A stretch of 64,000 nt of DNA from Candidatus Shapirobacteria bacterium UBA2283 (GCA_002345725.1 DDWP01000020.1:1433-65432), one strand, 5' to 3'; numbered from the stretch's first letter, positions 14,774 through 31,939 are shown. Notes: generated by a model from the sequence alone, not told the origin. Made by a program: numbers and translations.

Positions 14774-14794
14774 ATTAGTGCTTATAGAAAGGAG

Positions 14795-16218: not shown

Positions 16219-16224
16219 TGGAGG

Positions 16225-16262: not shown

Positions 16263-16301
16263 AGCAGAGAAAGAATATTTAAACTAAAATAAAAAAGCAA
16301 T

Positions 16302-16844: not shown

Positions 16845-16869
16845 TGGCAAAATTTAGTAGAATACGCTT

Positions 16870-17442
16870 ATGAAGTTAAAAACATTATTAGTATTTATCG
16901 CAGTAATTATTGGCTTAGGATTTATTATCAAAAACTTCTCTAATGGCAATTCAAAACAGGTGGCCTCCCCCACGCCATTGGAGGCGGTTAAAACGACACC
17001 GGATCCGATCCTGAGCCCAACCAGAGCACTCAAGCCAAACGAGGAGTTTATCTCGCCCTTTGGTTTATATGTTATTGTCCCCCAGGATATGACTTTTAGA
17101 AAAGAGGTAGCAGACAATGATGGCATTATCCATAGTGTCGGGTTTTATATCGAAAATAGCAGTAAAGATAATCCCTATATGTTGTATGGCCTCTACGAAG
17201 CCAAAACTGTTGTCACTGATCAAACCATGACAAGTGCTAAAAAAGACATGGTCCCATCGACAATCAAAGACATTACGATTGGTGGGTATAAGGGAGTCGA
17301 GGGATTAATAACCGGCGACAAGACCAGGTACATGGCTGTCATTGTCAAAGATGGTAAAAAGATCACCTTCTCAACTATTCCCCCAACCGAAGCAAACAAA
17401 GTAATCACAGATCAGCTTCTCTCCACTTTTAGCTTTCAGTGA
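16870..17442 (+). CDS. membrane-anchored or secreted hypothetical protein
   Basis: N-terminal TM/signal (LLVFIAVIIGLGFII), 190 aa. Confidence 0.45.
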   Translation: MKLKTLLVFIAVIIGLGFIIKNFSNGNSKQVASPTPLEAVKTTPDPILSPTRALKPNEEFISPFGLYVIVPQDMTFRKEVADNDGIIHSVGFYIENSSKDNPYMLYGLYEAKTVVTDQTMTSAKKDMVPSTIKDITIGGYKGVEGLITGDKTRYMAVIVKDGKKITFSTIPPTEANKVITDQLLSTFSFQ

Positions 17443-17452: not shown

Positions 17453-17992
17453 TCACTCTAATTGTCTAATCGACCACTTGCTACTATTTTCTGGTTGCCA
17501 GGTAATCCATATTTCCTGAAAATATCTATCAAAATAACCATCCATTTTGAATGGGGTGTATCTTGTAGAAAAGGATTCAACATCAGAGTTTGTTAGTAAG
17601 GGGCTATGAAGATTGCAAAGTAGAAGGATTTCTCCCGTAAAACCATCATAGCTTTTCTTATTTAACTTCTCTAATTTTTTTGCTATCTCAAGTTCTAAAT
17701 TTTCAAATGTTACTAGTTTAAACTCAGGTCTTTCATTATTTACTTTTCCTCGTGCATCATTCCACATTTTGCGAGCCTGGTATTGATTGTCGTAAGCACC
17801 AACTAATTCAATAGCGGTGTTGTCACTGCAAATACAATCAGGCTCTTTTTTACTAGGATCACCCAACCTTGTGAAGCATAGATCGCTTTTATTTAGATCG
17901 TTATATAAGGTCAAGAAGCGTATTGAAGCTGCTTCTTCATGAGCTGATTTGAGTTGTGTATTTATCATTACTCTATAAGCTAATTTATCCAT
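17453..17992 (-). CDS. hypothetical protein, last gene of the defence operon
   Basis: 179 aa, 3-bp gap to the upstream gene on the same strand; no recognisable domain. Confidence 0.45.
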   Translation of the reverse strand: MDKLAYRVMINTQLKSAHEEAASIRFLTLYNDLNKSDLCFTRLGDPSKKEPDCICSDNTAIELVGAYDNQYQARKMWNDARGKVNNERPEFKLVTFENLELEIAKKLEKLNKKSYDGFTGEILLLCNLHSPLLTNSDVESFSTRYTPFKMDGYFDRYFQEIWITWQPENSSKWSIRQLE

Positions 17993-17995
17993 ACT

Positions 17996-18277
17996 CTAAA
18001 ACTTCTTACTTAGCCAATATATGATTAATCCAACAATTGAAGCGGCAACAATCTCCTTAATGAATTTGCCGATCCACCCAATGACCACCCTGATTTTCTG
18101 AAAAAGGAACTGCTTGTGAATATATAGGATGTCCGCATATTGCATCCTTTGCCAGTTCGTCAAATAACTTCTTCTAGCTCTCAAAAATAAAACATCATGC
18201 TCGGGTAATTTTTCACCTGCATTTAGTCTTAACAGGATCTTATCAAAAATGGTTTGGGCTTCTGGATTCATTGTCAT
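17996..18277 (-). CDS. small protein with C-terminal transmembrane helix
   Basis: 93 aa, ...EIVAASIVGLIIYWLSKKF; 8-bp gap after the Cas4-like gene. Confidence 0.45.
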   Translation of the reverse strand: MTMNPEAQTIFDKILLRLNAGEKLPEHDVLFLRARRSYLTNWQRMQYADILYIHKQFLFQKIRVVIGWIGKFIKEIVAASIVGLIIYWLSKKF

Positions 18278-18284
18278 AATTGTT

Positions 18285-19046
18285 TCACTTATGTTGTCCT
18301 AAAGATTTGATCGCATTGTTATACAGGCAATAGTCACAGTCCTGTCCCTGCTCTGGGTATTCGTCTGATTGTAGGCACTTGTGAGCCTCTGTAATGACAC
18401 CTTCGACCCATGAATCATCACCAACGTAGGGAATTAAGGTAATATCAAATTCAAGCTTGCTGTCGAACGCTTTTCTGTCTAGCTGTCCATTACAATAAAC
18501 AAAATAGCCAGTAGAAGAAACCTTATAGCCATTTTTACGTAGTAGCCATTGATACACCTCCATTTGACGTTTATAGCCATCTTGCCACTCTTTATTTAAC
18601 TCAGTAATCTCTTCACTTTTTGAAGTCGACTTATAGTCAACAATAATATATTCGCCTTGAGAGTTTTGCCAAAGATCATCAATGGCTCCAAAAATCAGGA
18701 GGTTGGTGGGTTTATGTAAATACTGGATACCAGTAAAATTATGCCGCCATTTTTCTAGATCAGCATGAGCAACAGGTCTTGCATCAACTCCGTATTTTTC
18801 AATTAATGGGTGTTTAGTACCATTGGCACGGTGAATGTCGAACTCTAGCTTGAGTAAATGGTCCACTGCGGAGTTGAGAGCAAAAGGGAAGCCTGGTGGA
18901 CGTGCCACGCCTAAACGACGATCAAAATAAAAACAGCGTGGGCAATTTATAAAAAGATCAATTTTTGATCGGGACAGTTTAAACGGCTCGGATGAGTTTG
19001 GATCATATAGCCCTTTGGTTCGTTGTGAGTTATAGTATTGAGACAT
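18285..19046 (-). CDS. Cas4/RecB-like PD-(D/E)xK nuclease with Fe-S cysteine cluster
   Basis: GAIDD...EYIIVDYKSTSK (D...D/ExK core); Cys at CPRCFY and C-terminal C-x12-C-x2-C; directly follows the UvrD-like gene (15-bp gap). Confidence 0.65.
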   Translation of the reverse strand: MSQYYNSQRTKGLYDPNSSEPFKLSRSKIDLFINCPRCFYFDRRLGVARPPGFPFALNSAVDHLLKLEFDIHRANGTKHPLIEKYGVDARPVAHADLEKWRHNFTGIQYLHKPTNLLIFGAIDDLWQNSQGEYIIVDYKSTSKSEEITELNKEWQDGYKRQMEVYQWLLRKNGYKVSSTGYFVYCNGQLDRKAFDSKLEFDITLIPYVGDDSWVEGVITEAHKCLQSDEYPEQGQDCDYCLYNNAIKSLGQHK

Positions 19047-19060
19047 AATTAATCAATCAA

Positions 19061-21001
19061 TTATATTTTTAGGAACGGGTATTGTTTATTCTGATTCTTA
19101 ATTATATATAAATTCTTTCTAGGTCTCGTTATCATAACGTATAATTTATTCAGTTCCTGGATATAATCATAAATTTCACCTATGTTAGCCTGGTATGTTT
19201 TCCCCCAGAAAATTGCACTGTGTAGTCCATAATTCGATTTATGTGGCAAGTCTTCAATTTTTTGGACAATCACCTGTTCGTATTCTAACCCTTTAATTTT
19301 ATGTATATATTTGATCTCAAAAGTAAGTTTTTCTGTATTTGATCTGGTAATGTACTGCAGAAAGCCCTCGAGCTTTGGTTCTGTGATGCCAGTGAGCGAA
19401 TCCATTTTGTCTGATTCGGAAATTGAAACAAAAACAGATTGTTGATTTTGATTTAAACTCAAGTTTGATTTTAGACTTGACACTAACCGCTCACTGAATG
19501 AAACAAATTCGTCAAAAATAGGCTTGTCTACGTCCAACGAAATTGACAAATCCGTGGAGTCTACCGTGATGCGAAGCAAAGCATTATTGGATATTTCGTA
19601 GTTTAATTTATCGAATGTTAATGACTGGAGCGAATAAACATATTTCTCTAAGGCTTTGGGGTATTTTAAACGGTTGTTATAAAAGTCATATTTCAAGACT
19701 AGATATTTAATGAACAATGAAAAGTACTTAAACCCATATTTGTCTTCATAGTCTTTATAAATTTCTGAGTATAAGCTAAAGTTATTTCCACTATCAGTTG
19801 TGTCGTGTAGTTTATATTGTTTGTATACATCGATAGAATTGAACCTATTTATTCCGATACAGCATACCTCTTCGTTTAGTAGTTCATTAAATTTTAGATT
19901 AACAATTTCGCTGACTGAAGAAATTGTGGATTTGATAATGACCTTGCCATCACCACCACTTCCTTGTAAATCATCAGATATCTCTAGATCATCTAGATAT
20001 CCGACGATTTCCTGATTGTTCAGGTTTTGAATGGGTCCGGATCTTTTTATTTGGTTTAAAACTTCGTTATAGTTTTTTCTTGCGAAATTAAAAACTTCAT
20101 TTGAACATCTATGAGTTTTTTCTAACTTAATTTCACAGTCAGCATTTTTATGTAATTTGTTAAAGAATGCCTTCATATCATACATACTTCTCGGATTCGC
20201 TCCTGCGAAGCCATATATTGATTGATTTGGATCGCCAACCATGAACCACTTTACCTCATTTTTCTTTTCACCACGGCTTGCACTTAGTTCCTCAATTATC
20301 TTGCACTGTATCTCAGAAACGTCTTGAAACTCATCGATAAAAATCCAATCGATAGATCTATTAAGTGCCCTTCTGACAATACGGTTCTCTTGGATAATAA
20401 ACAGGGAGAGAAGGTTAATTAGGTTAAAATCAATTAGTTTTTGTGTGCTTAGGAAATTTAGATACGATGCGATAGTGGGTATTTCATGAGCATTGCTAAC
20501 TGGTTTCCAACTTCCATTAACCAATTTCAAGTTATAATAAATTTTTCCACTCTCAAGAATCTTATTAATTTCTGACTCCTCGATGTTGTGTTTTTTCAGG
20601 TGGTCAATCAATAATTGCCCATGCTCTTGAAAGTTAAAAATCGTTTTATAAGGTCTCAAACCTTTGCTACTTTTATACAAATAGGAAAATGGTTGTAAAA
20701 CGTATTGCAAACAGAAACTGTGAAACGTAAGAAACTCAACTTTAGTTAATAATTCAGGCTTAAGTATTTTAGAGCAACTATCTTCAAGATCCTCCACATT
20801 AACATTGGTATAAGAAATACAACAAATTTTATTAATATGGGGATTATCTAACAACAAATTCTTTATCTTTAAGGTGAGGATTGTAGTTTTTCCACTACCA
20901 GGTAGAGCTCTCACAAGAGTGTCTTGATCGCGTTCAATAATTTCGATTTGTTTTGGTGATAAATCAAAATCTATGCCAAGTTTTATTTTGTAATTAACCA
21001 T
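19061..21001 (-). CDS. UvrD/Rep-family SF1 helicase (GajB-like)
   Basis: Walker A LPGSGKTT, motif II IFIDEFQD, motif III GDPNQSIY, motif VI VMITRPRKNLYI. Confidence 0.8.
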   Translation of the reverse strand: MVNYKIKLGIDFDLSPKQIEIIERDQDTLVRALPGSGKTTILTLKIKNLLLDNPHINKICCISYTNVNVEDLEDSCSKILKPELLTKVEFLTFHSFCLQYVLQPFSYLYKSSKGLRPYKTIFNFQEHGQLLIDHLKKHNIEESEINKILESGKIYYNLKLVNGSWKPVSNAHEIPTIASYLNFLSTQKLIDFNLINLLSLFIIQENRIVRRALNRSIDWIFIDEFQDVSEIQCKIIEELSASRGEKKNEVKWFMVGDPNQSIYGFAGANPRSMYDMKAFFNKLHKNADCEIKLEKTHRCSNEVFNFARKNYNEVLNQIKRSGPIQNLNNQEIVGYLDDLEISDDLQGSGGDGKVIIKSTISSVSEIVNLKFNELLNEEVCCIGINRFNSIDVYKQYKLHDTTDSGNNFSLYSEIYKDYEDKYGFKYFSLFIKYLVLKYDFYNNRLKYPKALEKYVYSLQSLTFDKLNYEISNNALLRITVDSTDLSISLDVDKPIFDEFVSFSERLVSSLKSNLSLNQNQQSVFVSISESDKMDSLTGITEPKLEGFLQYITRSNTEKLTFEIKYIHKIKGLEYEQVIVQKIEDLPHKSNYGLHSAIFWGKTYQANIGEIYDYIQELNKLYVMITRPRKNLYIIKNQNKQYPFLKI

Positions 21002-23244
21002 GATAAACCATCTTCAATATACTTCGGAATAACAAAGTCCGGTAAATCATCGAAGGCAGTAACACTGCTGCTTTTATCCACAACAGAATCACCATTCCAG
21101 GTTTCGATTTCCGCCGGGTCTTGAAGTAATTTTGCTTTAAGTAAAGATGACAAATATAACGATATGGATGGTTTAGAGACTTCGTTGCCAAGGATAATGT
21201 CAAAAAAGCTGTCGAATTTGTCCTTGTCTATACTATTAGATTTGACTTCATCTGCAAACTTATTAATGGCGTCAATTCTTTTGGAGAAAGTTTCATCTTT
21301 CTTAAAATAATCACCGTCCCTCATAAACCTGTATAGGATTAACTTCAGATACTCGACGTTATTTGCATTTGGGTTGGTCGGATCTGGAATAAAAAAACAG
21401 TCAATTTCAAAGGTATAAATATTTCTTTTTGTTACTACTAATTCTTTTTCTTGATCGGCGATTTCCGCATTTAATTCTTCATATTTTGCTTTGTAATCAG
21501 GTATCTTTTGTTCCTCTAAGTGAGAGTCTCCGTCTCGAAGATTTAAACATTTGTTATTTAAGCCTCTGGTCAAATCATTATTGAACAAAGCATTGAATGG
21601 ATCAAATATCTTTCCTCCCACCTCCACTATCTCTATACCTTCACTATCAATATCAATATTTATATCTGGATTAATGCTCTTTAAATATGAGTTGACTAAT
21701 GTTCCTAGTGTATATTTCTCAGACAACCCTTCCACTAAGATAATTTTTCGAGCAAACAACAGAGAAGATCTGGTAGCGTCTAGATATTGTTTAAGGATTC
21801 TTCTGTTATGTCCATATGTTTCGGAATTTGCTTGTAACACACTATCGATGTTAATTGCTTTTGCTTGATGGATTCCTTTTTGTAACACCACTAAGTTTTT
21901 GAGATCTGATTTAGAAGCGAGATGTGTGGAATGAGAAGTTTGTATTACTTGAGTAAAAGCAAAAAATTGTTTATCTTCATCTTCGCTTTCTTCCCCATTC
22001 GACTTATTTAATTCCATTAATTTCTGTGTTTTGTTCTCTATTTGGGTGTGTAGGTATTTTTGATTTTGGACATCTAAGTGTGCCTCTGGCTCTTCTATCA
22101 AAAGCAAATTGTATACAATCTTAATTTTTTCATCTGAATCATTAAGAATTAATTCCTTTTTGAGTTCAAATAACGCGAATATTGCCGAGATGTACGCTAG
22201 ATTTTGGTAACCCAATCCGACAACATTCATATCTTGAGATGTCTTTAAATCTTCGTTTAAGTTAACAAGAAAGTTGAAGTATCTGCCAATATTTTCTAGG
22301 GTAACTTTTGGAGTTCCAATAACAAGGTCAGCTCTATTTGACAAAAGATTAATGTCTTTATCTTGAAGACGCTTTTCAATTTCATCCAATAAAATGCTTG
22401 CTTCTGGGATAGCGCCACTTGTTCGCAAATTTTTTAAGGCGGCAGAGACTTCTTTAGAAACACTGTTATTACTATTGTTCTTAGCGCACCCTCTAATTAA
22501 TTGTGAGACTAATGAGCGGTAACCAAAGTAAAAGTCATTTTTAACGTCTCGTAAAGCGTCAAGAGCCAGTAAATTTATGTGTTTTCTAACCTTATTGGCA
22601 TAGGATTGTTTTGATAATTGTTTTTCCAGAACGACTTTGGGATTCTCTCGGATTTTTTCAATATCTTCTTCACTAAGGTAAAAGTATTTATAAAAGTCTT
22701 TTTTATCTTTACATCCGTGCAATGTCGAAATGATCGTGTCGCCGTAGTCTTTTGTTGATCCATCAGGAAGGTAATAATAACCTGAAGGGTGATATCTACC
22801 TGCAACTAAAAATCCTATGTAGTCCTCTTCGATATCGTAGCCTCCTTCCTTGTTGATGGAAGAAGGAGCGAATACAAATGATATATTTGCCTCAAGATTA
22901 TCCTCCGAGGAGTCTAGATCAATTCCGTTATTTGTAGGCGCAATAGAATATAAAAGTGATTGAATTTCTTCTTTGTTCGAGACGCTGCTGAAGGTTATAG
23001 TTATAACTATTTCCTCACCAGCAACCCAGCAATTAGCTTCCTTACTCCAACAAAAATCGTCTTCCGATAGTCTCTTGTCCCAAGGCGGCATGCTTGAATC
23101 TAGAACTAGTCGAATTGCTTGTAAAAAATTAGTTTTACCGGAGTTGTTTCCTCCAATCAGCGTAAGTGGACTTCCATCAGGAATAAACAGATCAAACTCT
23201 TCAAAGTTACGGTAATTTTTTATGTAGACTCTAGAGATGTGCAT
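20983..23244 (-). CDS. OLD-family ATP-dependent endonuclease: ABC-type ATPase plus Toprim (GajA-like, extended C-terminus)
   Basis: IKNYRNFEEF...LIGGNNSGKTNFLQAIRLVL (Walker A), LLLIEEPEAHLD (Walker B/D-loop), Toprim ILVEGLSE...GIEIVEVGGK...RDGDS; 753 aa; 19-bp overlap with the helicase gene. Confidence 0.7.
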   Translation of the reverse strand: MHISRVYIKNYRNFEEFDLFIPDGSPLTLIGGNNSGKTNFLQAIRLVLDSSMPPWDKRLSEDDFCWSKEANCWVAGEEIVITITFSSVSNKEEIQSLLYSIAPTNNGIDLDSSEDNLEANISFVFAPSSINKEGGYDIEEDYIGFLVAGRYHPSGYYYLPDGSTKDYGDTIISTLHGCKDKKDFYKYFYLSEEDIEKIRENPKVVLEKQLSKQSYANKVRKHINLLALDALRDVKNDFYFGYRSLVSQLIRGCAKNNSNNSVSKEVSAALKNLRTSGAIPEASILLDEIEKRLQDKDINLLSNRADLVIGTPKVTLENIGRYFNFLVNLNEDLKTSQDMNVVGLGYQNLAYISAIFALFELKKELILNDSDEKIKIVYNLLLIEEPEAHLDVQNQKYLHTQIENKTQKLMELNKSNGEESEDEDKQFFAFTQVIQTSHSTHLASKSDLKNLVVLQKGIHQAKAINIDSVLQANSETYGHNRRILKQYLDATRSSLLFARKIILVEGLSEKYTLGTLVNSYLKSINPDINIDIDSEGIEIVEVGGKIFDPFNALFNNDLTRGLNNKCLNLRDGDSHLEEQKIPDYKAKYEELNAEIADQEKELVVTKRNIYTFEIDCFFIPDPTNPNANNVEYLKLILYRFMRDGDYFKKDETFSKRIDAINKFADEVKSNSIDKDKFDSFFDIILGNEVSKPSISLYLSSLLKAKLLQDPAEIETWNGDSVVDKSSSVTAFDDLPDFVIPKYIEDGLSWLITK

Positions 23245-23260
23245 AGTTTATTAATTCCAA

Positions 23261-26200
23261 TCATTCACCTGATATATTAAAAAATCTTTCAAAAAATCTT
23301 GTGAGTTTGTCAAGTACGCTTTCACGCTTTTTGGTACGCTCACCTGTAGGAGAGAATCGAGATACTGGTGGTAAGATTTTTGTAATTGCCGTACCAGTTG
23401 TGGCGACGTTACCGTTTCGGAAAGCGTTCTTAATAAACGTATATGTTGCGTCATGATCTAGACCTTCACTTGTAATGATTTGCTCAAGTTCTTCTACCTT
23501 CTTGCCCTCAATAAATTTTCTCCAATCATCGTCCACAATTGAATGGACATCAAGCGATTCAATAAATTGATTGATAAGGTCTTTCTTGTTTCGCAATTCA
23601 ACGCTCGAATCGATGGCTTTATTAATATCAAGTAGAATTTCACGATTTTTTGTGTGATCCTCGTGGTACTTTTTTATCAGTCCTAGAATGTAATCAATAT
23701 TGATATCTACCTGTTTAATAAGCTCCATCTCAAATACTACATCATCATTAACATTTTCCTTACTGTCTTCTGTGCCTTTGCGGAATTCGTTATAAATATC
23801 AATATAAGCACTGTGGTAATCTTGAACGTCGCGCTCAGATAAGATCTCATTGCCCACAAATTCATCGAAGGTAGTCAGAATATTGCGTACTCGCAAAATT
23901 GCCCCATATAGTTTGATAAAGTCTTTTTGGTTTTGCTCGCCGATAATTCTTTCACCGACAGGAAATCTCTCTTGCAATTCTTTTACTAAACTTTCGTATC
24001 CCCTAATTTCTTTGCTGCCGTCGTTGTAACCATGGTAATAATCAGCATATGCCTTCAAAAGAACAATGCCGCTGGCTTCTTTATCTCCAAATAGGGCAAT
24101 GGACTCATTTGTGGCTTTCTCAAGGTTGCGAAAACAGACGATGTTCCCAAACGTTTTTACGCTATTCAAAATACGATTTGTCCGAGAATACGCTTGTAAT
24201 AATCCATGCAATCTCAAATTTTTGTCTACCCATAAAGTATTGAGAGTTGTCGCGTCAAAACCAGTTAAAAACATATTGACCACAATTAAGATGTCAATTT
24301 CCCGATTTTTCACTCGTTCGCTTACATCCTTATAATAGTTTTGAAATTTATCAGAGGAAGTATCATAGGATGTACCAAACATTTTGTTGTAATCAACAAT
24401 GGCACTTTCCAAAAAATCTCGGGAGCTTACATCAAGACCACTAGTGTCCTCCGAGTTTTCATCTATCATTCCGTCTGCATCCTCATCATTTACACCAAAA
24501 CTATAAATAGTCGCTACTTTTAGTTGTTTGTCGCTTGGGAGATCAGACAATTGTTTTTTAAACTCAGCGTAATACTTTTTGGCGACATCAATAGAAGAGA
24601 CTGCGAAGATTGAGTTAAAGCCGGCTAGTCTTCGATCCTTTAATTTATAAAAGCTATTGCGTTTAGTTTTCTGATCGAAATGTTCACGGATGTATCGAAC
24701 AATATTCTCTAGGCGTTCAGACGCAGCTAGAATTGCCTCACGGTCAATATCACTAACTTTTTTGTCTTCTATGTTTTCCGCTTCACGAACTGTCGAAATA
24801 TAGTCAACTTTAAACGGTAAAACGTTTTTATCTGCAATTGCATCTACAATGGTATATGTATGTAGCTTTTCTCCGAACGCTTGTTCGGTCGTCTTCAAAT
24901 CTGGACGACCTCCTGATGAGGCATTGATTGCAAAAATCGGTGTACCAGTAAATCCGAAGATATGGTAATTCTTAAATGTTTTGGTAATGGCGGCATGCAT
25001 GTCGCCAAACTGCGAGCGGTGACATTCATCAAATATTAGGACTACATGGTCATCAAAAATGGTGTGACCGGTATTTCGACTGATAAAACGATCGAGTTTC
25101 TGGATTGTGGTAATAATAATACGAGCATTTGAATTCTCGAGCTGTCGTGTCAAAATCGCTGTACTTGTATTACTGTTAGCAGCACCTTTTTCGAATTTGT
25201 CGTACTCTCGCATCGTCTGATAGTCCAAATCCTTGCGATCAACAATAAAAATAACCTTATCAATATAAGACAATTTGCTCGCCAATTGAGCTGTCTTGAA
25301 GCTGGTCAGGGTCTTTCCTGATCCAGTAGTATGCCAAATGTATCCACCAGCTTCTGCTGTCCCTAGTTTCTTATAGTTTGTACTAACTTCAATTCTGTTA
25401 AGAATTCTCTCTGTGGCGACTATCTGATAGGGGCGCATCACTAGAAGTAATTTGTCAGTAGTAAATACACAGTACCGAGTAAGGATATTCAAAATCGTAT
25501 GTTTTGCAAAAAAAGTCTTTGCAAAATCCATTAAGTCTGTAATAGGTCGATTGGTGGCATCCGCCCACCAACTGGTGAATTCGTAACTATTACTGGTTCG
25601 TTTGCCATTTTTAACAGAGCCTTCGTTTGAATCCTTTACATGCTGGTATCTGGTAGTGTTACTGTAATACTTGGTATGTGTGCCATTTGAAATGATAAAT
25701 ATCTGGACATATTCAAAAAGACCAGACGAAGCCCAAAAACTTTCTCGGTTATATCGATTAATCTGGTTAAACGCTTCTTGAATCGCTACTCCACGACGTT
25801 TTAGCTCGATGTGGACTAAAGGCAGCCCATTAACAAGAACTGTGACGTCATAACGATTAGCACGCTGGCCGTCTTCTGTTGCGTATTGGTTAATAACTTG
25901 CAGGCTATTGTCGTGAATTGAGTCTTTTTTAATGAGATAGATATTTTTTACTGTGCCGTCGTCACGGGTGAGATTTTTAATATGATCTTCTTGAATCGTT
26001 GCTGTTTTTTCAGTAATACTCTGATTTGGATTTGCAAGTTCACTTACAAAAAATCGTTCCCATTCGAGGTCTGAAAATGTAAATGCGTTTAGCTTTTCTA
26101 ATTGCTTACGTAAGTTCGCTATCAAATTAGCCTCTGAGCTAATAGTCACATATTCATAAGCCTGCAATTCCAGTTGCTTAATAAAAGCTCGTTCGAGTTC

Positions 26201-26308
26201 TGCCTCACTTTGATAGTTTGTCGCGCGAACACTTTCCGGTGTGTACTCGGAAACAACAGTGCTCTGCGTATTCTTAGCGACTAGATTGTATTTGTTATTA
26301 ATTGGCAT
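23261..26308 (-). CDS. hsdR: type I restriction enzyme R subunit
   Basis: SF2 helicase motifs HTTGSGKTLTSF, LIFDECHRSQ; 1015 aa; adjacent to hsdS and hsdM. Confidence 0.85.
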   Translation of the reverse strand: MPINNKYNLVAKNTQSTVVSEYTPESVRATNYQSEAELERAFIKQLELQAYEYVTISSEANLIANLRKQLEKLNAFTFSDLEWERFFVSELANPNQSITEKTATIQEDHIKNLTRDDGTVKNIYLIKKDSIHDNSLQVINQYATEDGQRANRYDVTVLVNGLPLVHIELKRRGVAIQEAFNQINRYNRESFWASSGLFEYVQIFIISNGTHTKYYSNTTRYQHVKDSNEGSVKNGKRTSNSYEFTSWWADATNRPITDLMDFAKTFFAKHTILNILTRYCVFTTDKLLLVMRPYQIVATERILNRIEVSTNYKKLGTAEAGGYIWHTTGSGKTLTSFKTAQLASKLSYIDKVIFIVDRKDLDYQTMREYDKFEKGAANSNTSTAILTRQLENSNARIIITTIQKLDRFISRNTGHTIFDDHVVLIFDECHRSQFGDMHAAITKTFKNYHIFGFTGTPIFAINASSGGRPDLKTTEQAFGEKLHTYTIVDAIADKNVLPFKVDYISTVREAENIEDKKVSDIDREAILAASERLENIVRYIREHFDQKTKRNSFYKLKDRRLAGFNSIFAVSSIDVAKKYYAEFKKQLSDLPSDKQLKVATIYSFGVNDEDADGMIDENSEDTSGLDVSSRDFLESAIVDYNKMFGTSYDTSSDKFQNYYKDVSERVKNREIDILIVVNMFLTGFDATTLNTLWVDKNLRLHGLLQAYSRTNRILNSVKTFGNIVCFRNLEKATNESIALFGDKEASGIVLLKAYADYYHGYNDGSKEIRGYESLVKELQERFPVGERIIGEQNQKDFIKLYGAILRVRNILTTFDEFVGNEILSERDVQDYHSAYIDIYNEFRKGTEDSKENVNDDVVFEMELIKQVDINIDYILGLIKKYHEDHTKNREILLDINKAIDSSVELRNKKDLINQFIESLDVHSIVDDDWRKFIEGKKVEELEQIITSEGLDHDATYTFIKNAFRNGNVATTGTAITKILPPVSRFSPTGERTKKRESVLDKLTRFFERFFNISGE

Positions 26309-27482
26309 ATTCTTTGAAACTTAACAATTTATTTCGATAGTATTCATATTGAGATCTTCTAGCGGCAAGCTCAGCAGGTAAACCTATTGAGATGTCGTTC
26401 ACTAATTTTTCAAACTTATCAAGAATAATAACGATATTTTCCTGTTGGGTTATGGTAGGAATAGGAAGTAATAACGATTTAACTATCTCAGCATTTAAAT
26501 TTTGTACAGTTCCATTCGATGCTTTTTGCGTCATTGTTTGATAGACGGCGTCTGAGCTTAAAAGGTGGTATAAAAAATCTGATATATATGTTTTGTTGAA
26601 ATCACTTATGGATAACCAACCGTCATGTATGCACCCATCGATTTTTAAAATATATGGTCGACCAAAACTCATTGAGTTTGATAATACAAAATCACCTTTT
26701 TTAACAAATCTCGATTTCTGAGCACCTTCTGGTTTAATTTTTTGCAAAGTTTGCGTTATATATTTACTTCCCTTTTCAACATCACCAATTTTTATCCAGT
26801 TGATACCGTTTTCTTCCTTAGTAAAATAATTATTAATTGGCCGTGGAGAACCACCCCTGACAATCTTTGCACTTTCTCCAAACTTCGCCCACTTTATGTC
26901 TTTGCCAAACTCCAAGAACTTTGAACGATAGTGATTGTATTGCTTCTTCCTTGCTTCCAGCTCCGCTTCCAGCTCCGCTTCCAGCTCTGTGAAATTATTA
27001 AGAATTTTGACTATTTCATTTTGTATTGCAAGCGGTGGCAATGGGATTTTAAATTTGGAATACTGGGAAATCCAATGACGAGCATGGTCTGTTGGAGTGT
27101 AGTTAATACACTTCATTGCGTAATACAAAAATCTAAAATTCACACCAGCGTTTTGTTTCGGTCTTAACATTTTCATTGCTGAAGACTTAACTTTAAATTT
27201 AAAATCAACCCAATGAAATGAAGTAGTAAAATCATCAAAGATAATTACAGGCTTATCTTTACTTGCTTCGTATATTCCTTCTGTTTCGTCTGTGTAGCCG
27301 AGGACAAAGCTTTGTCCTGCAGTCAAAACTGGAGTTGCGAAATCATTGCTATATTCTATTGAATTAACTATGTAATCCCCAGGTTGCTCATAGTCCAAGA
27401 GATCATCCAATTCTTTGAAATCAACCCCTTTGGGGCACAACTGTGTAATTAATTTTTCTATTTTGCCTTGTTTGTTAGTCAT
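26298..27482 (-). CDS. hsdS: type I restriction-modification specificity subunit
   Basis: Two TRDs separated by a central conserved coiled-coil (ELEA)x3-RKKQYNHYRSKF, and C-terminal AELAARRSQYEYYRNKLLSF. Confidence 0.8.
   Translation of the reverse strand: MTNKQGKIEKLITQLCPKGVDFKELDDLLDYEQPGDYIVNSIEYSNDFATPVLTAGQSFVLGYTDETEGIYEASKDKPVIIFDDFTTSFHWVDFKFKVKSSAMKMLRPKQNAGVNFRFLYYAMKCINYTPTDHARHWISQYSKFKIPLPPLAIQNEIVKILNNFTELEAELEAELEARKKQYNHYRSKFLEFGKDIKWAKFGESAKIVRGGSPRPINNYFTKEENGINWIKIGDVEKGSKYITQTLQKIKPEGAQKSRFVKKGDFVLSNSMSFGRPYILKIDGCIHDGWLSISDFNKTYISDFLYHLLSSDAVYQTMTQKASNGTVQNLNAEIVKSLLLPIPTITQQENIVIILDKFEKLVNDISIGLPAELAARRSQYEYYRNKLLSFKEYAN
26953..26988. repeat. 12-bp tandem repeat x3 (GCTTCCAGCTCC) encoding (ELEA)3 in the hsdS central conserved region
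   Basis: Three consecutive copies at 26953-26964, 26965-26976 and 26977-26988 (last with 1 mismatch). Confidence 0.8.
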
Positions 27483-27486
27483 ACTT

Positions 27487-29070
27487 TTATGTTGAACCTT
27501 CGATATCGTTTACAATCTCGTCGATGGCTGTTCGGAGTTCGTTTTGTCTCGCCACAATCTGGGTTATCTTTGCATTAAGCTTAGTTATATCCACTGCCTC
27601 ACGAGTATCTTCTGCTACCACATAACTTGACACCGCAACGTTGTAATCGTTATCAGCAATGGTTTTGTTGTCTATAAGTTTGGCAAAATACTCAGAGTCT
27701 TGACGGTCACAAAATGCATTCAAAATTTTTAGACGATTGGCCTCGCTAAGTTTGTTTTTATTTCCACCCCTCACAAACTCTGCAGAAGCATCAATAAAGA
27801 GAGTCTTATTGTCCTTTTTGCTCTTTTTGAGAACAATGATGCATGTTGCTATACCTGTTCCAAAAAAAAGATCTGGGGGTAGCTGAATAACAGTGTCTAC
27901 GTAGTTGTTATCGATAAGGTATTTACGAATCTTTTGTTCTGCACCGTTACGATAGAGAACTCCTGGAAATTCAACAATCGCTGCCGTGCCGCTTGTTGAG
28001 AGCCATGAAAGCATGTGCATGGTAAAAGCAAGATCGGCTTTGCTTTTCGGGGCCAAAACACCCGCTGGAGAGTAGCGTGGATCGTTTATAAGAAGTGGAT
28101 TAGCGTCACCATCCCATTTTATTGAATAGGGTGGATTAGAAACTATCGCATCAAAGGGTTCTTCGTCCCAATGTTTTGGATCAGTGAGAGTATCGCCAAG
28201 GGCAATGTCAAAGTTGTTGTAGTTAATGTCGTGCAAAAACATATTGATACGGCAGAGGTTGTAGGTAGTTAGGTTGATTTCTTGTCCAAAAAAACCTTGA
28301 CGCACATTTTCTCTTCCAAGAACCTTGGCAAATTTGAGAAGAAGCGACCCAGAACCACAAGCCGGATCATATACTTTATTAACTTCTTTCTTGCCTACTG
28401 TAGTAATCTCAGCAAGCAGCTCACTAACTTCTTGTGGAGTATAAAATTCACCACCAGATTTGCCTGCATTCGAGGCATACATGGTCATCAGAAACTCATA
28501 TGCATCCCCGAAAGCATCAATGGTGTTGTCGGAATAATTTCCAAGGCCAAGATTACCAATTGCCTCCAAAAGTTTAACGAGTTTCTGATTCCTTTTTTCT
28601 ACAGTATTGCCTAATTTGTTGGAATTCACGTCAAGATCGTCAAACAGTCCCTTAAGATCATCCTCGCTGCTTGCGCCTTTTGCTGAGTTTTCTATCTTAT
28701 TAAAAACAGTTGATAAAGTCTCGTTGAGATTTGCATCATTGCGTGCATTTTTACAAACATTTGTAAAAAGCTCGCTCGGCAAAATATAGAACCCTTTTTC
28801 CTTAACAGTATCTGTCCGACCAAATTCTGCCTCTTTATCCGATAGATTTGCGTAATCAAAACCTTTTTTGTCTGCACGACGTTCATCATCGTTAATGTAG
28901 TTAGCTAAATTCTCGCTGATAAAACGATAAAAAAGCATTCCCAGTACATACGATTTAAAATCCCAGCCATCAACGCTTCCTCTTAAATCATTAGCAATTT
29001 GCCAAATAGCACGATGCAACTCTGTACGTTCTTGTTCTTTGGTTCTATCTTGAGAATCTGTTTTTTTCAT
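27487..29070 (-). CDS. hsdM: type I restriction-modification N6-adenine methyltransferase subunit
   Basis: HsdM N-domain (IWQIANDLRG...YVLGMLFYRFIS), motif I DPACGSGSLL, motif IV SNPPYS. Confidence 0.85.
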   Translation of the reverse strand: MKKTDSQDRTKEQERTELHRAIWQIANDLRGSVDGWDFKSYVLGMLFYRFISENLANYINDDERRADKKGFDYANLSDKEAEFGRTDTVKEKGFYILPSELFTNVCKNARNDANLNETLSTVFNKIENSAKGASSEDDLKGLFDDLDVNSNKLGNTVEKRNQKLVKLLEAIGNLGLGNYSDNTIDAFGDAYEFLMTMYASNAGKSGGEFYTPQEVSELLAEITTVGKKEVNKVYDPACGSGSLLLKFAKVLGRENVRQGFFGQEINLTTYNLCRINMFLHDINYNNFDIALGDTLTDPKHWDEEPFDAIVSNPPYSIKWDGDANPLLINDPRYSPAGVLAPKSKADLAFTMHMLSWLSTSGTAAIVEFPGVLYRNGAEQKIRKYLIDNNYVDTVIQLPPDLFFGTGIATCIIVLKKSKKDNKTLFIDASAEFVRGGNKNKLSEANRLKILNAFCDRQDSEYFAKLIDNKTIADNDYNVAVSSYVVAEDTREAVDITKLNAKITQIVARQNELRTAIDEIVNDIEGST

Positions 29071-29072
29071 AA

Positions 29073-29249
29073 TTATTTTCCATTTTTATGACTAATAAAT
29101 TTTTCGATATCTTCCTTTTTGTATCTGCGAACCTTTTTAATCCCAATTCGTATGGCTTTTAGTACACCTTTCTTGTCCCATAATCTAAGAGTGTTAGGGT
29201 GTACTTTTAGTATCTGAGCTGCTTCACTTAGTGTTAATAGTTCTTCCAT
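29073..29249 (-). CDS. small HTH_17 (excisionase/AlpA/MerR-like) DNA-binding protein, 58 aa
   Basis: Minus-strand translation MEELLTLSEAAQILKVHPNTLRLWDKKGVLKAIRIGIKKVRRYKKEDIEKFISHKNGK; stop is 2 bp before the hsdM start; below the track length cutoff. Confidence 0.55.
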   Translation of the reverse strand: MEELLTLSEAAQILKVHPNTLRLWDKKGVLKAIRIGIKKVRRYKKEDIEKFISHKNGK

Positions 29250-29370
29250 ATGATTTACCTACCAATTTATACTAATAGCATACAAAAAAAACTGATATTT
29301 TTCAACAGTTGTCACCAGAAACGAGCTAGCATTTGACACTTTAATTTTATAACCTGAGATTGTAACTAAT

Positions 29371-29440
29371 TTGCCTAACGAACCTGTCGGGGCTTAGGTT
29401 TGTCTATTTCAACCGAGTAGATGAACCTAAGCCCCTTTTT
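29371..29440 (+). promoter_or_regulatory. conserved box TTGCCTAACGAACCTGTCGGGG plus 12-bp-stem hairpin and T5 (copy A), 11 bp before the portal ATG
   Basis: Stem GGGGCTTAGGTT (29389-29400) pairs with AACCTAAGCCCC (29424-29435), then TTTTT; box is repeated at 34448. Confidence 0.55.
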
Positions 29441-29451
29441 GTTATCCACAT

Positions 29452-31296
29452 ATGTCAGAGATCAAAGAAGAAAAAATAACTCAGGATAGACACTACGAGC
29501 CCACGCCAGAAGAAGAAAAGCTTCTAACTAAGTGGAAAGCGAGATTCCGACGTGCTAAAGAATTTCGTGACCCGTATCAAGCGAAATGGCTCAGGATGTA
29601 TCAGCTCTATCGTGCCTATCAGAATAAGCAAAATTACGCTTACAACACGCGCTTAATGCCCCCCATTGCCTTTGAGATAGTGAAGACTGTAGTTTCCCGA
29701 CTGGCTACTGCCAAACGGAAAACACAAATCATTCCGCGCCACAGAGATGACGTTGAATCTCCGTCGCTGGGATCTTGGGATGACCTGGTTAACTATGACT
29801 TTGACATTATTGACCTGATCAAGAAGCTTCCAAGTTGGATCGAATCATCGGTCCTGTACGGTAACGGTGTGGTTAAGCTTGCTTGGAAAGTAATTACCAG
29901 GAAGAAGAAAACTGTATACGACGACCCAACCATGGGTCTGATTGACCTTTGGGAATTGCTCCCGGCGCCGGAAACTATTGATGACCTTCAGGACGGTTGC
30001 CCGTGGCTCATTCAACGCATTGTTAAAGGAAAAGAGAAAATAGAAAAGGAAGAAGAAAGCAGGGGTGATGATAAGATTTATAAGAATTTGGAGTTTTGTG
30101 AGCCAAAAATAGTTGAAGACTGGAAAAAGGAAAGATACGAGATTAACAGTAAGAAGATGTCTCAGGTAGATGGTGGAACTAAAAAGGAAGCTGATGGGGA
30201 AAAGGTTCTTCCGGCAAAACTCGATAAGGAAAAACAACTTGAACTCTGGGAGTGTTGGGATTATGAGGAAGATAAGCTGGTAGTGATCTGCAATGGTGAG
30301 GTGGTAATAAGAGATGACGATAATCCCTATCTTGAAGTCAACAATGGTCATATCTATGTTGATTTACCAGATATGCCCCTGCTATGGGAATTCTGGGCGA
30401 CCGGTCATATCGAACCCGTAGAAACGACAATCCATGAAATTGCGGATCTGAGAAATCAGCGTATGGATGATGTCATCCTGATGTTGGACCCGGTAGTCAA
30501 AATTCGTAAGGATTCTGGAATTACCAAAAACGATATTATCTTTTCTCCAGGTGCGACTTGGGAGTTGAGAAAGATGGATGATGTGGTTATCGAACGGCCA
30601 CCAGAAATAAGCCTCATGGGTGTTAATGAAGATAAATTAATGAGGGATGAAATTTCTCGCACTCTTGCCCTTGGCGAATATATGAGTGGCCAACCACAAT
30701 CTCCCGATGAACCCCTTGGAAAAGTGGCAACACTTATTGGCCAAAGTAATCTACGGCTTAGCATGAATGCTCAAAATATCGCTGTTGCCTTGACCCAGGT
30801 GGCCAACATTCTCATTCAACTTAATCAAGAGTTTATAAGCGAGGACAAGCTATATCGATTAATAGGTAAGGATGTAGATTTCAAAGAATTCAAGAAGGAA
30901 GATAAAAAAGTAGTAGTTGATGCGATTGTTGAAATTGAGCCGATAATCCCCCCAGATAAAACTACAAAACTAAATCAGGTCCTACTCATGTATGACAAGT
31001 TCATTGCTCAGGACAAGCCGGATCCAAATAATCCCGAGGAGGTAAGGCGATGGTTGAAACGTAAGCGAGAATTGCAAAAGATGATTTTGGAAGAGTTAGA
31101 TAAAGAAGAATACATAGAGCTTTTGTTGGGTCCCGATTCAGAAGCCAAGGAGCTACCACAAAATAATGATGCACAAGCCCCCATAACACCCGCTGAGGGG
31201 CAAACTCCACCAGCAGAGCCAACTACACCCGGTCCAAACAAAATTCAACAACTTATGGGTAAGATACCAATTTTAGGGAAGATGTTGGGAGGTTAA
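29452..31296 (+). CDS. putative phage portal protein
   Basis: 614 aa, first gene of the structural string, acidic C-terminus; assignment by size and position. Confidence 0.4.
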   Translation: MSEIKEEKITQDRHYEPTPEEEKLLTKWKARFRRAKEFRDPYQAKWLRMYQLYRAYQNKQNYAYNTRLMPPIAFEIVKTVVSRLATAKRKTQIIPRHRDDVESPSLGSWDDLVNYDFDIIDLIKKLPSWIESSVLYGNGVVKLAWKVITRKKKTVYDDPTMGLIDLWELLPAPETIDDLQDGCPWLIQRIVKGKEKIEKEEESRGDDKIYKNLEFCEPKIVEDWKKERYEINSKKMSQVDGGTKKEADGEKVLPAKLDKEKQLELWECWDYEEDKLVVICNGEVVIRDDDNPYLEVNNGHIYVDLPDMPLLWEFWATGHIEPVETTIHEIADLRNQRMDDVILMLDPVVKIRKDSGITKNDIIFSPGATWELRKMDDVVIERPPEISLMGVNEDKLMRDEISRTLALGEYMSGQPQSPDEPLGKVATLIGQSNLRLSMNAQNIAVALTQVANILIQLNQEFISEDKLYRLIGKDVDFKEFKKEDKKVVVDAIVEIEPIIPPDKTTKLNQVLLMYDKFIAQDKPDPNNPEEVRRWLKRKRELQKMILEELDKEEYIELLLGPDSEAKELPQNNDAQAPITPAEGQTPPAEPTTPGPNKIQQLMGKIPILGKMLGG

Positions 31297-31904: not shown

Positions 31905-31939
31905 AAATTAGTTTACTGGCTTATATATCTAAATTATTT

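Follow-up and report, generated by a model that had tools for sequence, protein, structure and literature searches.

A portal-side defence-gene block as probable hotspot cargo of an SU10-like prophage in a CPR bacterium

A block of nine genes in a phage-like region

Between positions 17453 and 29249 of the window, by which we mean the whole 64,000-nucleotide stretch of DNA that was analysed, ORF calling places nine co-oriented minus-strand genes with a spacing of -19 to +16 bp. Independent JGI gene calls give the same nine boundaries, and the two sets together confirm the tiny gaps and overlaps described in the initial annotation, with one correction: the gap between hsdR and the OLD-family gene is 16 bp rather than 17. 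The gene labels proposed there agree with the Pfam and PADLOC domain calls. In the direction of reading, the block and the region ahead of it comprise:

29250-29320, minus strand: promoter-like region upstream of the HTH_17 gene, with -35 TTGAAA, a 17-nt spacer and -10 TATGCT at 29305-29277
29073-29249, minus strand: HTH_17 gene, 58 aa; Pfam HTH_17 4.7e-12, PADLOC mad1 1.6e-12
27487-29070, minus strand: hsdM, 527 aa; N6_Mtase 1.1e-112, HsdM_N 2.7e-21, PADLOC MTase_I 1.2e-131
26298-27482, minus strand: hsdS, 394 aa; Methylase_S in two stretches, PADLOC Specificity_I 3e-105 over the full length
23261-26308, minus strand: hsdR, 1015 aa; HSDR_N, SWI2_SNF2/ResIII, T1R_D3-like and EcoR124_C, PADLOC REase_I 1183 bits
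20983-23244, minus strand: gajA (OLD family), 753 aa; AAA_15 and OLD-like_TOPRIM, PADLOC GajA 8e-63
19061-21001, minus strand: gajB (UvrD/Rep-like SF1 family), 646 aa; UvrD-helicase 1.2e-37, PADLOC GajB 3e-50
18285-19046, minus strand: Cas4-like (RecB-family) PD-(D/E)XK nuclease gene, 253 aa; PDDEXK_1 3e-14
17996-18277, minus strand: u93, 93 aa, with a C-terminal hydrophobic helix
17453-17992, minus strand: u179, 179 aa

By these coordinates, 2 bp lie between the HTH_17 gene and hsdM and 4 bp between hsdM and hsdS; hsdS and hsdR overlap by 11 bp and gajA and gajB by 19 bp; and gaps of 14, 7 and 3 bp follow gajB, the nuclease gene and u93, respectively. GC content is 32-35% over the Gabija genes versus 40-47% in the phage backbone.

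The surrounding DNA is an SU10-like prophage of roughly 50 kb (about 1.8-52 kb of the window). A large serine recombinase gene (1792-3408) overlaps tRNA-Gly, and the prophage also has an IrrE-like peptidase and HTH pair, TerL, and an SU10-type capsid protein and adaptor. Host genes begin at ~54.6 kb, where a PEP synthase is 73-81% identical to Shapirobacteria/Microgenomates proteins, and by its genes the host appears to be a Microgenomates/Shapirobacteria-like CPR bacterium. The following features outside the block bear on what follows:

6786-7886: orphan methyltransferase gene
8288-9547: second orphan methyltransferase gene
10188-11735: TerL gene
12055-17442, plus strand: seven genes between TerL and the island (a sigma factor, a YceG-like protein and five without assigned function)
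16870-17442, plus strand: left flank gene, a phage gene without assigned function, convergent with u179 and 10 bp from it
29321-29451, plus strand: right flank leader, lying shortly before the portal ATG and containing a promoter-like sequence, AACGAGCTAGC..N14..ATTTTATAACCT, as well as a strong hairpin that has a T-run (29389-29435)
29452-31296, plus strand: portal gene, with a weak SU10_portal match below the Pfam cut-off

Both junctions of the block recur in separate assemblies, the one between the HTH_17 and portal genes in L002-L004 and the one between u179 and the left flank gene in L128 and L131, which rules out a chimera.

A variable slot beside the portal gene

Every close relative has the left flank gene (41-54% identity), and in each of them the cargo, or else the empty site, follows directly to its right. 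On the other side, the leader and its hairpin, a terminator-like structure of 20 pairs (fold -41.6 kcal/mol, z = -5.4), are kept in every relative, empty sites included. The portal protein is 59-77% identical in most viral contigs recovered and 49-50% identical in the two most distant, and the order of its gene and those for the adaptor and the SU10-type major capsid protein is conserved. A slot bounded by these two flanks is present in at least 12 related contigs. It is empty in L011, L013 and L022/L029, in which 138 bp separate the left flank gene from the portal gene, and it holds different defence cargo in at least six other relatives. One cargo set consists of a PLD-SNF2 helicase and an Eco57I/TaqI_C methyltransferase with Ppl, a PD-(D/E)XK nuclease and a trypsin-like protease; another has the same restriction-modification-like PLD-SNF2/Eco57I pair with GajA/GajB, DUF2779, a protease and DUF4209 (PDC-S39); a third combines type III Mod/Res with u179 and an Mrr-STAND protein; and a fourth joins an HTH_17-HNH fusion to a type III-like system. 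The defence types represented across cargo sets are type I, type III and type IIG-like restriction-modification (RM), Gabija, Ppl, PDC-S39 and Mrr-STAND. The distance from terL to the portal gene ranges from 0.2-0.7 kb in distant relatives, where the two genes directly adjoin, up to 28 kb.

The initial annotation had called for comparison with related phages and had suggested a prophage-carried defence hotspot at a terL-portal junction. Because relatives have an empty site or other cargo at this position, the block is an insertion, and the hotspot itself is borne out. Its placement between terminase and portal held in part: the island abuts the portal gene, but seven plus-strand genes separate it from TerL. 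The junction that forms the hotspot has the left flank gene, not terL as such, on one side and the portal gene on the other.

We think it quite probable that this slot is an accessory-gene hotspot of a temperate SU10-like phage, integrated as a prophage in a CPR bacterium, and that the block is what it carries at present. The explanation takes in what was observed here of gene content, motif integrity, prophage setting, empty and otherwise filled sites and modularity and, as predictions, the expression, co-transcription and anti-phage activity of the block. Such an arrangement resembles the hotspots of P2-like prophages and P4-like satellites (Rousset et al. 2022, PMC9122126) in its fixed slot between conserved phage genes, its variable and defence-rich content, its empty and alternative states, and its compact cargo oriented as a unit of its own. 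Unlike those hotspots, this slot belongs to an SU10-like phage with a serine integrase and a CPR host, adjoins the portal gene, and takes cargo of up to ~23 kb with at least four systems, in which HTH_17 recurs as leader gene and, in several cases, a Cas4-like nuclease recurs too.

Composition of the cargo

The cargo divides into four successive modules that can be told apart and that all run opposite to the late genes on either side. The first, which recurs across relatives, would be a small regulator of the HTH_17 type together with a promoter-like region of its own. The protein is MerR-like, and its gene, the first of the island, is the conserved anchor of the hotspot: homologues 82-89% identical occur in L006-L010 and L014 at the same site beside the portal gene, with different cargo behind them. 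Its best PHROG matches are excisionase families (phrog_66 1.7e-08, phrog_2907), the phage uses a serine integrase, and serine integrases need a directionality factor; the gene might thus encode a phage excisionase or recombination directionality factor rather than a cargo regulator. We consider this very unlikely, given that the fetched parts of empty-site relatives contain no HTH_17 homologue, that a homologue (76% identical) stands directly before hsdM in MAG locus L053, where no gene of this phage family was detected, and that the protein resembles mad1, the dispensable regulator gene heading the MADS operon (bioRxiv 10.1101/2023.03.30.534895). In that system a small regulator gene likewise heads a methylase-containing operon, and the mad1, mad2 and mad5 models of PADLOC are matched by the HTH_17, HsdM and HsdS proteins. 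MADS itself was rejected as the identity of these genes: mad6, mad7 and mad8, mandatory in the detection model of its authors (bioRxiv 10.1101/2023.03.30.534895), have no PADLOC match among the nine island proteins, and the mad models are far outscored by the type I models.

By its domains, the second module, hsdM/hsdS/hsdR, is predicted to be a complete EcoR124-like (family IC-like) type I system, in which HsdM has a methyltransferase and an N-terminal domain, HsdS has two target-recognition domains, and HsdR combines a nuclease domain at its N-terminus with an SF2 motor and an assembly domain at its C-terminus. It shares with known systems of this kind the three subunits with expected domains, the order M-S-R, overlapping or near-overlapping genes, and variation of HsdS among otherwise near-identical systems; it differs in being headed by an HTH_17 gene and prophage-borne. 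HsdM is 88-89% identical to HsdM of MAG loci L053 and L089, and across HsdM and HsdR the identity is 87-89%, whereas HsdS is only 34-36% identical, which points to a target specificity different from those systems. A head HTH gene with a conserved promoter-like region also recalls controller (C-protein) RM systems, in which such a gene, with its operator, times restriction after methylation; the island's HTH_17 protein belongs to a family other than the classical C-protein (XRE-type) one, and its upstream region yielded no definable operator.

Near-identical HsdM and HsdR with different HsdS in other MAGs would also suit a block that mainly serves the phage, its RM system being an addiction module that also protects progeny DNA by methylating it, and its nucleases being weapons against competing phages in lytic growth instead of lysogen immunity. 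That the prophage already has two orphan methyltransferases suggests that methylation-based evasion matters to it. We nonetheless find this account unlikely: the island opposes the late genes and has its own promoter-like region, the usual layout of lysogen-expressed cargo, and both accounts could hold together, since a protected lysogen means a protected prophage.

The third module is GajA/GajB. GajA has intact OLD ATPase/TOPRIM motifs (Walker A GGNNSGKT at 31-38, EEPEAH at 384-389, TOPRIM E505 and DGD at 571-573) and its gene adjoins and overlaps a UvrD/PcrA/Rep-like gene, whose product has Walker A, DEFQD, motif III and motif VI and matches, among solved structures, GajB chains (2e-12) and Rep (2e-13). 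With a UvrD-like helicase gene adjacent, GajA is assigned to the predicted class 2 OLD nucleases. It is 74% identical to the gajA product of L009 and L010, where other genes stand ahead of gajA. Like characterised Gabija (PMC10568477, PMC10781630), the island pairs an OLD-family ABC-ATPase and TOPRIM protein directly with a UvrD/Rep-like SF1 protein, both with intact catalytic motifs and both strongly matched by the PADLOC models. The island proteins are, however, much longer (753 and 646 aa vs ~578 and 494 aa) and embedded in a larger co-oriented block; a class-2-specific TOPRIM helical insert and a 4:4 GajA:GajB complex are features of the known system. A phmmer search with island GajA gave no match to the solved B. 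cereus GajA and only weak matches to other OLD proteins, and its sequence match to the class 2 TOPRIM region is likewise weak (6njv, 1.3e-4). Since island GajA is this distant from the characterised B. cereus protein and ~175 aa longer, the Gabija mechanism is carried over to it by analogy.

The fourth module comprises the Cas4-like Fe-S nuclease gene, u93 and u179. The nuclease has four conserved cysteines (CxxC at 35-38 and 236-239) and the RecB motifs DD (123-124), DxK (137-139) and QxxxY (161-165). Homologues with 72-86% identity were found in no fewer than 310 species genomes, almost all of which carry a CPR label, and around them defence genes lie upstream and housekeeping or mobile-element backbone genes downstream. 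Its identity as a CRISPR-associated Cas4 was rejected, as the gene has no cas1/cas2 or CRISPR-cas neighbourhood; cas domains were found neither in the window proteins scanned nor among the most frequent neighbour domains in MAG loci. Solo-Cas4 genes are common in CPR genomes and may act in defence or repair, and pfam12705 proteins have been linked to UvrD helicases and restriction systems (Hudaiberdiev et al. 2017, PMC5704561). The island gene resembles these in encoding a Cas4/RecB-type nuclease with a four-cysteine cluster away from CRISPR-cas, and differs in encoding a separate 250-aa protein with no UvrD fusion, unusually highly conserved and polar in context, a combination for which the literature searched held no earlier description. 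Neither u93 nor u179 has a Pfam, PADLOC or PHROG match. The u179 family has 55 homologue clusters, with Patescibacteria as the only named match, and conserved residues that include E19, P51-D52 and E62; its AlphaFold model (mean pLDDT 83) has an alpha-beta-beta-beta-alpha topology and no significant PDB match in Foldseek, and may have a PD-(D/E)XK-like fold.

The initial annotation had taken the last five genes together as a Gabija-like module. Tight packing, the recurrence of the same five genes in L133, and the nuclease-type gene (DUF2779, 502 aa) that also comes after GajB in L027/L010 would fit one extended Gabija variant whose GajA and GajB could not do without the nuclease, u93 and u179. 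This is improbable. The close relative L132 encodes a 723-aa protein, a 903-aa non-Gabija AAA_21 ATPase, and then the nuclease (94% identical), u93 and u171, and for this reason the trio is best read as a module separate from Gabija; u93 thus accompanies the nuclease gene in both L132 and L133. The nuclease gene follows a Ppl-like gene in L008/L031; over 63 distinct MAG contexts, only 3 of 118 proteins encoded one or two genes upstream of it have a UvrD-type helicase domain; and u179 occurs apart from Gabija behind a type III RM system in L007 (62% identical) and after a trypsin-like protease in L136. The label Gabija thus stands for gajA and gajB, and not for the three genes behind them.

Transcription and proposed roles

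The only conserved non-coding DNA in the island is the region upstream of the HTH_17 gene, where a TTGAAA-N17-TATTCT element is conserved in all seven HTH_17-bearing relatives, and we infer that this region acts as a promoter. Together with the tight packing and the lack of any internal terminator-like site above chance (10 found vs 8.3 expected), this makes co-transcription from the HTH_17 promoter plausible. Strong AGGAGG ribosome-binding sites are absent from the island genes and present on phage structural genes.

Alternatively, hsdMSR, gajAB and the nuclease module might be transcribed independently, each from a promoter in the 3' end of the gene before it, and be neighbours only because defence genes accumulate in hotspots. 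Their histories are clearly separate, and the minus strand has promoter-like hexamers within hsdR (24297-24270) and, as TAAACA-17-TATAAT, 14 nt upstream of the PD-(D/E)XK start (19088-19060). Such hexamers are no commoner than in shuffled sequence (41 found vs 45 expected, with a sigma-70-like consensus, CPR promoters being poorly known). DNA homology to relatives ends 0-7 nt from the gajA and PD-(D/E)XK start codons, so no upstream element travels with either module; no shared motif was found upstream of the 75 PD-(D/E)XK genes compared; and no gap exceeds 16 bp, with two junctions overlapping. Independent units thus appear somewhat unlikely, though the likeliest of the alternatives weighed here.

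Under the hotspot-cargo explanation, the HTH_17 promoter would probably drive transcription of the block in the lysogen, for the most part as a single unit. The type I system would methylate lysogen and prophage DNA and cut unmodified incoming DNA. Gabija would form a second layer in which, by analogy with the Bacillus cereus system, GajA would nick DNA as nucleotide pools fall in phage replication and GajB would drive the nucleotide depletion. The lysogen, and hence the prophage, would be protected from other phages and mobile elements, and cargo would be exchanged between related phages and host islands via recombination in or at the conserved flanks.

The Cas4-like nuclease invites a broader, speculative proposal, which we hold to be rather doubtful: that across Patescibacteria mobile elements it is the conserved gene at the edge of exchangeable arrays of defence cargo. 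It might be a shared downstream processor of DNA ends from whichever restriction or ATPase system precedes it, a role that would stand in for RecBCD/AddAB on the assumption that these reduced genomes lack them. Alternatively, it might be a homology handle for cargo swaps among phages, small integrative elements and chromosomes. If the proposal is true, the nuclease gene would mark the place where hypervariable, co-oriented defence operons upstream of it give way to the element backbone or the chromosome downstream. The hotspot as a whole is of a known kind, found here in a little-studied group of hosts, the ultra-small bacteria of the CPR/Patescibacteria.

The prophage and its defence island

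The window holds a prophage inside a Candidate Phyla Radiation (CPR) genome, and its principal features, in window coordinates, are as follows.

Principal features of the prophage and the adjoining host DNA
1792-3408, minus strand: large serine recombinase gene at the left end, overlapping a tRNA-Gly gene
Right of the recombinase: phage genes for DUF3800, then an IrrE-like peptidase and HTH pair
6786-7886 and 8288-9547, plus strand: orphan C5-cytosine methyltransferase and ParB-N6/N4 fusion methyltransferase, upstream of the terminase
10188-11735: TerL
Between TerL and the island, plus strand: seven genes, namely a sigma factor (12055-12579), a YceG-like protein and five unknowns
16870-17442, plus strand: left flank gene, the last of these seven, a phage gene of no assigned function
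17453-29249, minus strand: defence island of nine genes
29452-31296, plus strand: portal gene
31293-34288, minus strand: second cargo block, right of the portal gene (hydrolase-like gene, aldo-keto reductase, 2-hydroxyacid dehydrogenase, DUF5680)
Further right: SU10-type capsid protein, adaptor and a 1541-aa protein
From ~54.6 kb: cellular genes (solute-binding protein, transglutaminase-like protein, PEP synthase)

The GC skew changes at ~51 kb. The host is assigned to the CPR through its PEP synthase, which shares 73-81% identity with proteins under the names Candidatus Shapirobacteria or Microgenomates. The 3' end of the serine integrase (stop at 1792) overlaps tRNA-Gly(tcc) at 1786-1859 (+), with tRNA-Pro and tRNA-Leu adjoining (region 1555-3408), and this is probably where the prophage ends on the left, having integrated in or at a tRNA gene. 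Attachment-site direct repeats flanking the prophage were sought and none was found, as is expected with a serine integrase. Near the right prophage end lies an array of six tRNA genes (52468-53160, plus strand; Leu, Phe, Gly, Val, Leu, Gln) that may be phage or host genes; an Rfam scan of the window returned tRNAs only. Both orphan methyltransferases are kept across relatives and probably protect the phage itself against restriction. A megablast of positions 9000-33000 against GenBank phages and PLSDB plasmids returned nothing.

The initial annotation described the island as a run of nine co-oriented minus-strand genes with tiny gaps or overlaps, which is borne out both by the ORF coordinates, descending from 29249 to 17453, and by independent JGI gene calls on the identical sequence that agree on every gene boundary. 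The sole change concerns the gap between hsdR and the OLD-family gene, which had been given as 17 bp.

Junctions within the island, from 29249 downwards
HTH_17 and hsdM: 2 bp gap
hsdM and hsdS: 4 bp gap
hsdS and hsdR: 11 bp overlap
hsdR and OLD gene: 16 bp gap
OLD gene and helicase gene: 19 bp overlap
helicase gene and PD-(D/E)XK nuclease gene: 14 bp gap
PD-(D/E)XK nuclease gene and u93: 7 bp gap
u93 and u179: 3 bp gap

An assembly artefact is rejected, as the junctions at the two ends of the island recur in separately assembled contigs, the portal side in L002-L004 and the left-flank side in L128 and L131. Pfam and PADLOC also agree with the domain labels first proposed. The leading gene encodes a 58-aa HTH_17/MerR-like protein, and the type I restriction system that follows is complete, with HsdM (N6_Mtase match at 1e-112), an HsdS with two recognition domains, and an HsdR comprising HSDR_N, an SF2 motor and EcoR124_C. 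The OLD-family protein combines AAA_15 and TOPRIM domains and matches GajA in PADLOC (8e-63), while the UvrD-like protein matches GajB (3e-50). Motifs are intact in both proteins (Walker A, the EEPEAH Walker B region, TOPRIM E505 and DGD in GajA; Walker A, DEFQD and motifs III and VI in GajB). The two are much longer than the Bacillus cereus pair, and a comparison of the window GajA with the solved GajA gave no direct match. The nuclease gene product carries a PDDEXK_1 domain; u93 (93 aa) and u179 (179 aa) have no match in Pfam, PADLOC or PHROGs. Membership of MADS, raised by matches to mad1, mad2 and mad5, was dropped because mad6-8, which its authors consider mandatory, had no match; mad1 is described as a dispensable, widespread regulator (bioRxiv 10.1101/2023.03.30.534895). 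Whereas plus-strand genes of the phage have the strong ribosome-binding motif AGGAGGTGAAAAA (14782-14808, 37247-37273 and 38749-38767), none of the nine island genes has a comparable Shine-Dalgarno sequence, a contrast that fits a foreign origin of the cargo.

A hotspot between the left flank gene and the portal gene

To place the island in its phage family, ~38 related viral loci were recovered by an IMG/VR search with the portal and TerL proteins as queries, the window proteins were mapped onto them and their ORFs were listed. The initial annotation had considered the island's position between terminase and portal genes compatible with a prophage-carried defence hotspot and had suggested a comparison with related genomes or phages; empty and alternative sites in related phages show that the island is indeed an insertion in a genuine hotspot, but the true slot lies between the left flank gene and the portal gene rather than at the terL-portal junction. 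In the distant relatives L025 and L036-L040 terL and portal are separated by 0.2-0.7 kb. In close relatives (L011, L013 and L022/L029) the site is empty: all the plus-strand genes are there, beginning with the sigma factor and ending with the homologue of the 16870-17442 gene, and the portal gene comes just 138 bp later. Occupied sites in L006-L010 and L014 carry an HTH_17 homologue (82-89% identical) at the equivalent place beside the portal gene, with different genes behind it.

Alternative cargo at the hotspot in related phages
L008/L031 and L014/L032: PLD-SNF2 helicase, Eco57I/TaqI_C methyltransferase, Ppl-like protein, PD-(D/E)XK nuclease (84% identical), trypsin-like protease
L010/L027: PLD-SNF2 helicase-methylase pair, GajA/GajB (74% and 73%), DUF2779, protease, unknown, DUF4209/PDC-S39 protein
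L007/L033: type III Mod/Res, u179 homologue (62%), 1365-aa HTH-Mrr-STAND protein, unknown
L005/L026: HTH_17-HNH fusion, type III-like methylase and Res protein, on the opposite strand

The borders of the slot are sharp. On the left, all cargo variants stop within 10 bp of the flank-gene stop codon. On the right, a box resembling AACGAACTAGC-N14-ATTTTATAGCCT (written also as AACGAGCTAGC..N14..ATTTTATAACCT) lies just before the portal ATG (29321-29451, plus strand), followed by a 20-bp hairpin with a T-run (29389-29435; fold of -41.6 kcal/mol, z = -5.4). Since box and hairpin are kept in all relatives, empty sites included, with apparent compensatory changes in the stem, the inserted segment extends from ~17443 to ~29320. 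The box could be a late promoter for the phage sigma factor (12055-12579) and the hairpin a leader or attenuator.

A prophage of the same family in an 886-kb chromosome (L074, OZ246416.1; portal 58% identical) has the Cas4-like nuclease gene and a 96-aa gene immediately before portal and on its strand, with large genes of like orientation before them, and therefore the hotspot exists in the opposite orientation too. A second variable slot directly follows the portal gene; it is occupied in the window by the minus-strand block at 31293-34288 and, at the equivalent position in L005, L007, L008, L009, L014 and L022, by a P-type cation ATPase, HerA-like, HEPN, VWA plus AAA_5 or signal-peptidase-domain proteins, or a 1407-aa unknown. 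Membrane-anchored Trypsin_2 proteases occur repeatedly in the hotspot cargo (L031 18078-19364, L030 10679-11965 and L027 18779-19870) and also at 6964-8004 of the MAG locus L136.

Modules, transcription and proposed action of the island

Most of the initial interpretation holds, with corrections to the exact junction, to the extent of Gabija and to the status of the nuclease. The block consists of four modules: HTH_17 with a promoter-like region, hsdMSR, gajAB, and nuclease-u93-u179. This structure follows from gene contexts, homology ends and GC differences. L133 is arranged as in the window; in the very close relative L132, a 723-aa protein and a 903-aa AAA_21 protein replace hsdMSR-gajAB, and the locus continues with the PD-(D/E)XK nuclease (94% identical), u93 and a u179 homologue. 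Elsewhere the nuclease gene stands directly behind the Ppl-like gene (L008/L031) and a u179 homologue behind a type III system (L007). DNA homology of gajA or the nuclease gene to other occurrences stops 0-7 nt from the start codons, and GC content is 32-35% in gajAB, 36-40% in hsdMSR and 40-47% in the phage backbone. The 'Gabija-like module' had been thought to span five genes; only gajA and gajB are Gabija, the nuclease module being separate by context, and a five-gene Gabija variant is mostly rejected on the same grounds.

Whether the modules share one transcript is a closer call, and we lean slightly towards co-transcription of most of the block, perhaps as a single transcription unit. No gap at a junction exceeds 16 bp and two junctions overlap, the number of terminator-like sites is no higher than in shuffles (10 vs 8.3) with none between modules, and gajA and the nuclease gene carry no upstream DNA along. 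The sole non-coding DNA shared with relatives is the ~70 bp upstream of HTH_17, which holds TTGAAA-N17-TATGCT (TATTCT in the relatives). Two points reduce certainty: sigma-70-like hexamers, one of them 14 nt ahead of the nuclease gene, occur at chance level (41 vs 45.3), and the promoters of CPR bacteria are poorly defined. The stops of the left plus-strand genes and of the convergent island are 10 bp apart, so these genes have no terminator ahead of the island, and no plus-strand hairpin comes before that of the portal leader. As a speculation, then, late transcription may cross the island antisense in lytic growth.

HTH_17 most likely acts as a regulator, given that it directly precedes hsdM in L053, a MAG locus in which genes of this phage family were not detected, and that in the phages it always stands ahead of a methylase-containing module. 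An excisionase, to which its PHROG matches would point, is a minor alternative. As a universal 5' anchor of PD-(D/E)XK islands in MAGs HTH_17 was rejected, for a local HMM placed it near the nuclease gene in only 3 distinct loci, so that its anchoring role is confined to this phage family.

In the lysogen, the HTH_17 promoter would drive the block, HsdM2S would methylate a bipartite site on chromosome and prophage, and HsdR-containing complexes would cut incoming unmodified DNA. HsdS is 34-36% identical to its counterparts in the MAG loci L053 and L089, where HsdM and HsdR are 87-89% identical, and such divergence beside near-identical partners is the usual sign of specificity switching. Gabija would form a second, methylation-independent layer: nicking by B. 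cereus GajA is held off by nucleotides and released once phage replication depletes them, and B. cereus GajB, when it senses DNA ends, hydrolyses (d)ATP/(d)GTP (PMC10568477).

The Cas4-like nuclease and defence in the Candidate Phyla Radiation

The 253-aa nuclease (18285-19046, minus strand), a Cas4-like PD-(D/E)XK protein with a predicted Fe-S cluster, has CxxC at both ends and the RecB/Cas4 motifs DD, DxK and QxxxY. A protein search returned at least 8000 relatives, the best 120 of them 77-99% identical, and a one-genome-per-species scan found at least 310 loci, nearly all labelled as Patescibacteria lineages, the best 80 of the 310 at 72-86% identity. DNA identity is just 70-77% and ends at the gene borders, so the gene is old and strongly constrained, and recent spread was rejected. 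Neighbours differ in nearly every locus, with 1263 protein families in all among 84 MAG loci (L043-L126) and the related phage contigs. The adjacent gene lies on the same strand upstream in 67 and downstream in 70 of 79 loci, with median gaps of ~5-7 bp. The context is also polar, with defence-type genes upstream and housekeeping or mobile-element backbone genes downstream. Among the 118 proteins at positions -1/-2 the commonest domains, along with those of type I and Eco57I restriction-modification, are ResIII (11), HerA (8), SMC_N (7), AAA_21 (6) and reverse transcriptase (5); the 136 proteins at +1/+2 include tRNA synthetases, RuvB, GTPases and TspO, and almost no defence domains. Six or seven loci (L062, L066, L071, L076, L077, L079 and L086) share one conserved small integrative element downstream (~+0 to +4.5 kb), whose backbone comprises a 57-aa protein, reverse-strand 96-aa and 188-aa genes, an XRE protein, a LexA-like repressor and a large serine recombinase (~+2.9 kb); the upstream defence cargo is different in each. 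A conserved promoter or site upstream of the nuclease gene was sought in 75 distinct loci and none was found. Solo-Cas4 has been described as common in CPR, with a possible defence or repair role, and pfam12705 proteins have been linked to UvrD helicases and restriction systems (Hudaiberdiev et al.; PMC5704561); we found no description of the polar, boundary-like context in the literature.

The u179 family comprises ~55 clusters, the sole named member found being from Patescibacteria, and its conserved residues include E19, P51-D52 and E62. The core of its AlphaFold model (pLDDT 83) is alpha-beta-beta-beta-alpha, which is compatible with a restriction-endonuclease-like fold; a Foldseek search against the PDB gave no significant match. 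In L136 a trypsin-like protease gene runs with its end into the start of a u179-family gene, a hint of another module without annotation, and in L134 the family member lies within a four-gene unannotated set.

CPR/Patescibacteria make up a large share of bacterial diversity and mostly lack CRISPR, and to our knowledge almost nothing has been established about the biology of their phages. Our analysis indicates that CPR temperate phages carry multi-system defence hotspots laid out like those of P2/P4 in Escherichia coli. The kind of system is already known (PMC9122126), here with restriction-modification and Gabija behind a common leader gene; new are the host group, the particular slot, the HTH_17 leader that recurs and the Cas4-like gene at the boundary. 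One defined site offers natural cargo variants in at least seven states, together with empty sites and both flanks, and, several cargo genes being unannotated, the set is a practical route to new defence genes from uncultured lineages. The polarity between the very conserved nuclease and varied defence operons could show how tiny genomes finish off restricted DNA or shuffle defence cargo.
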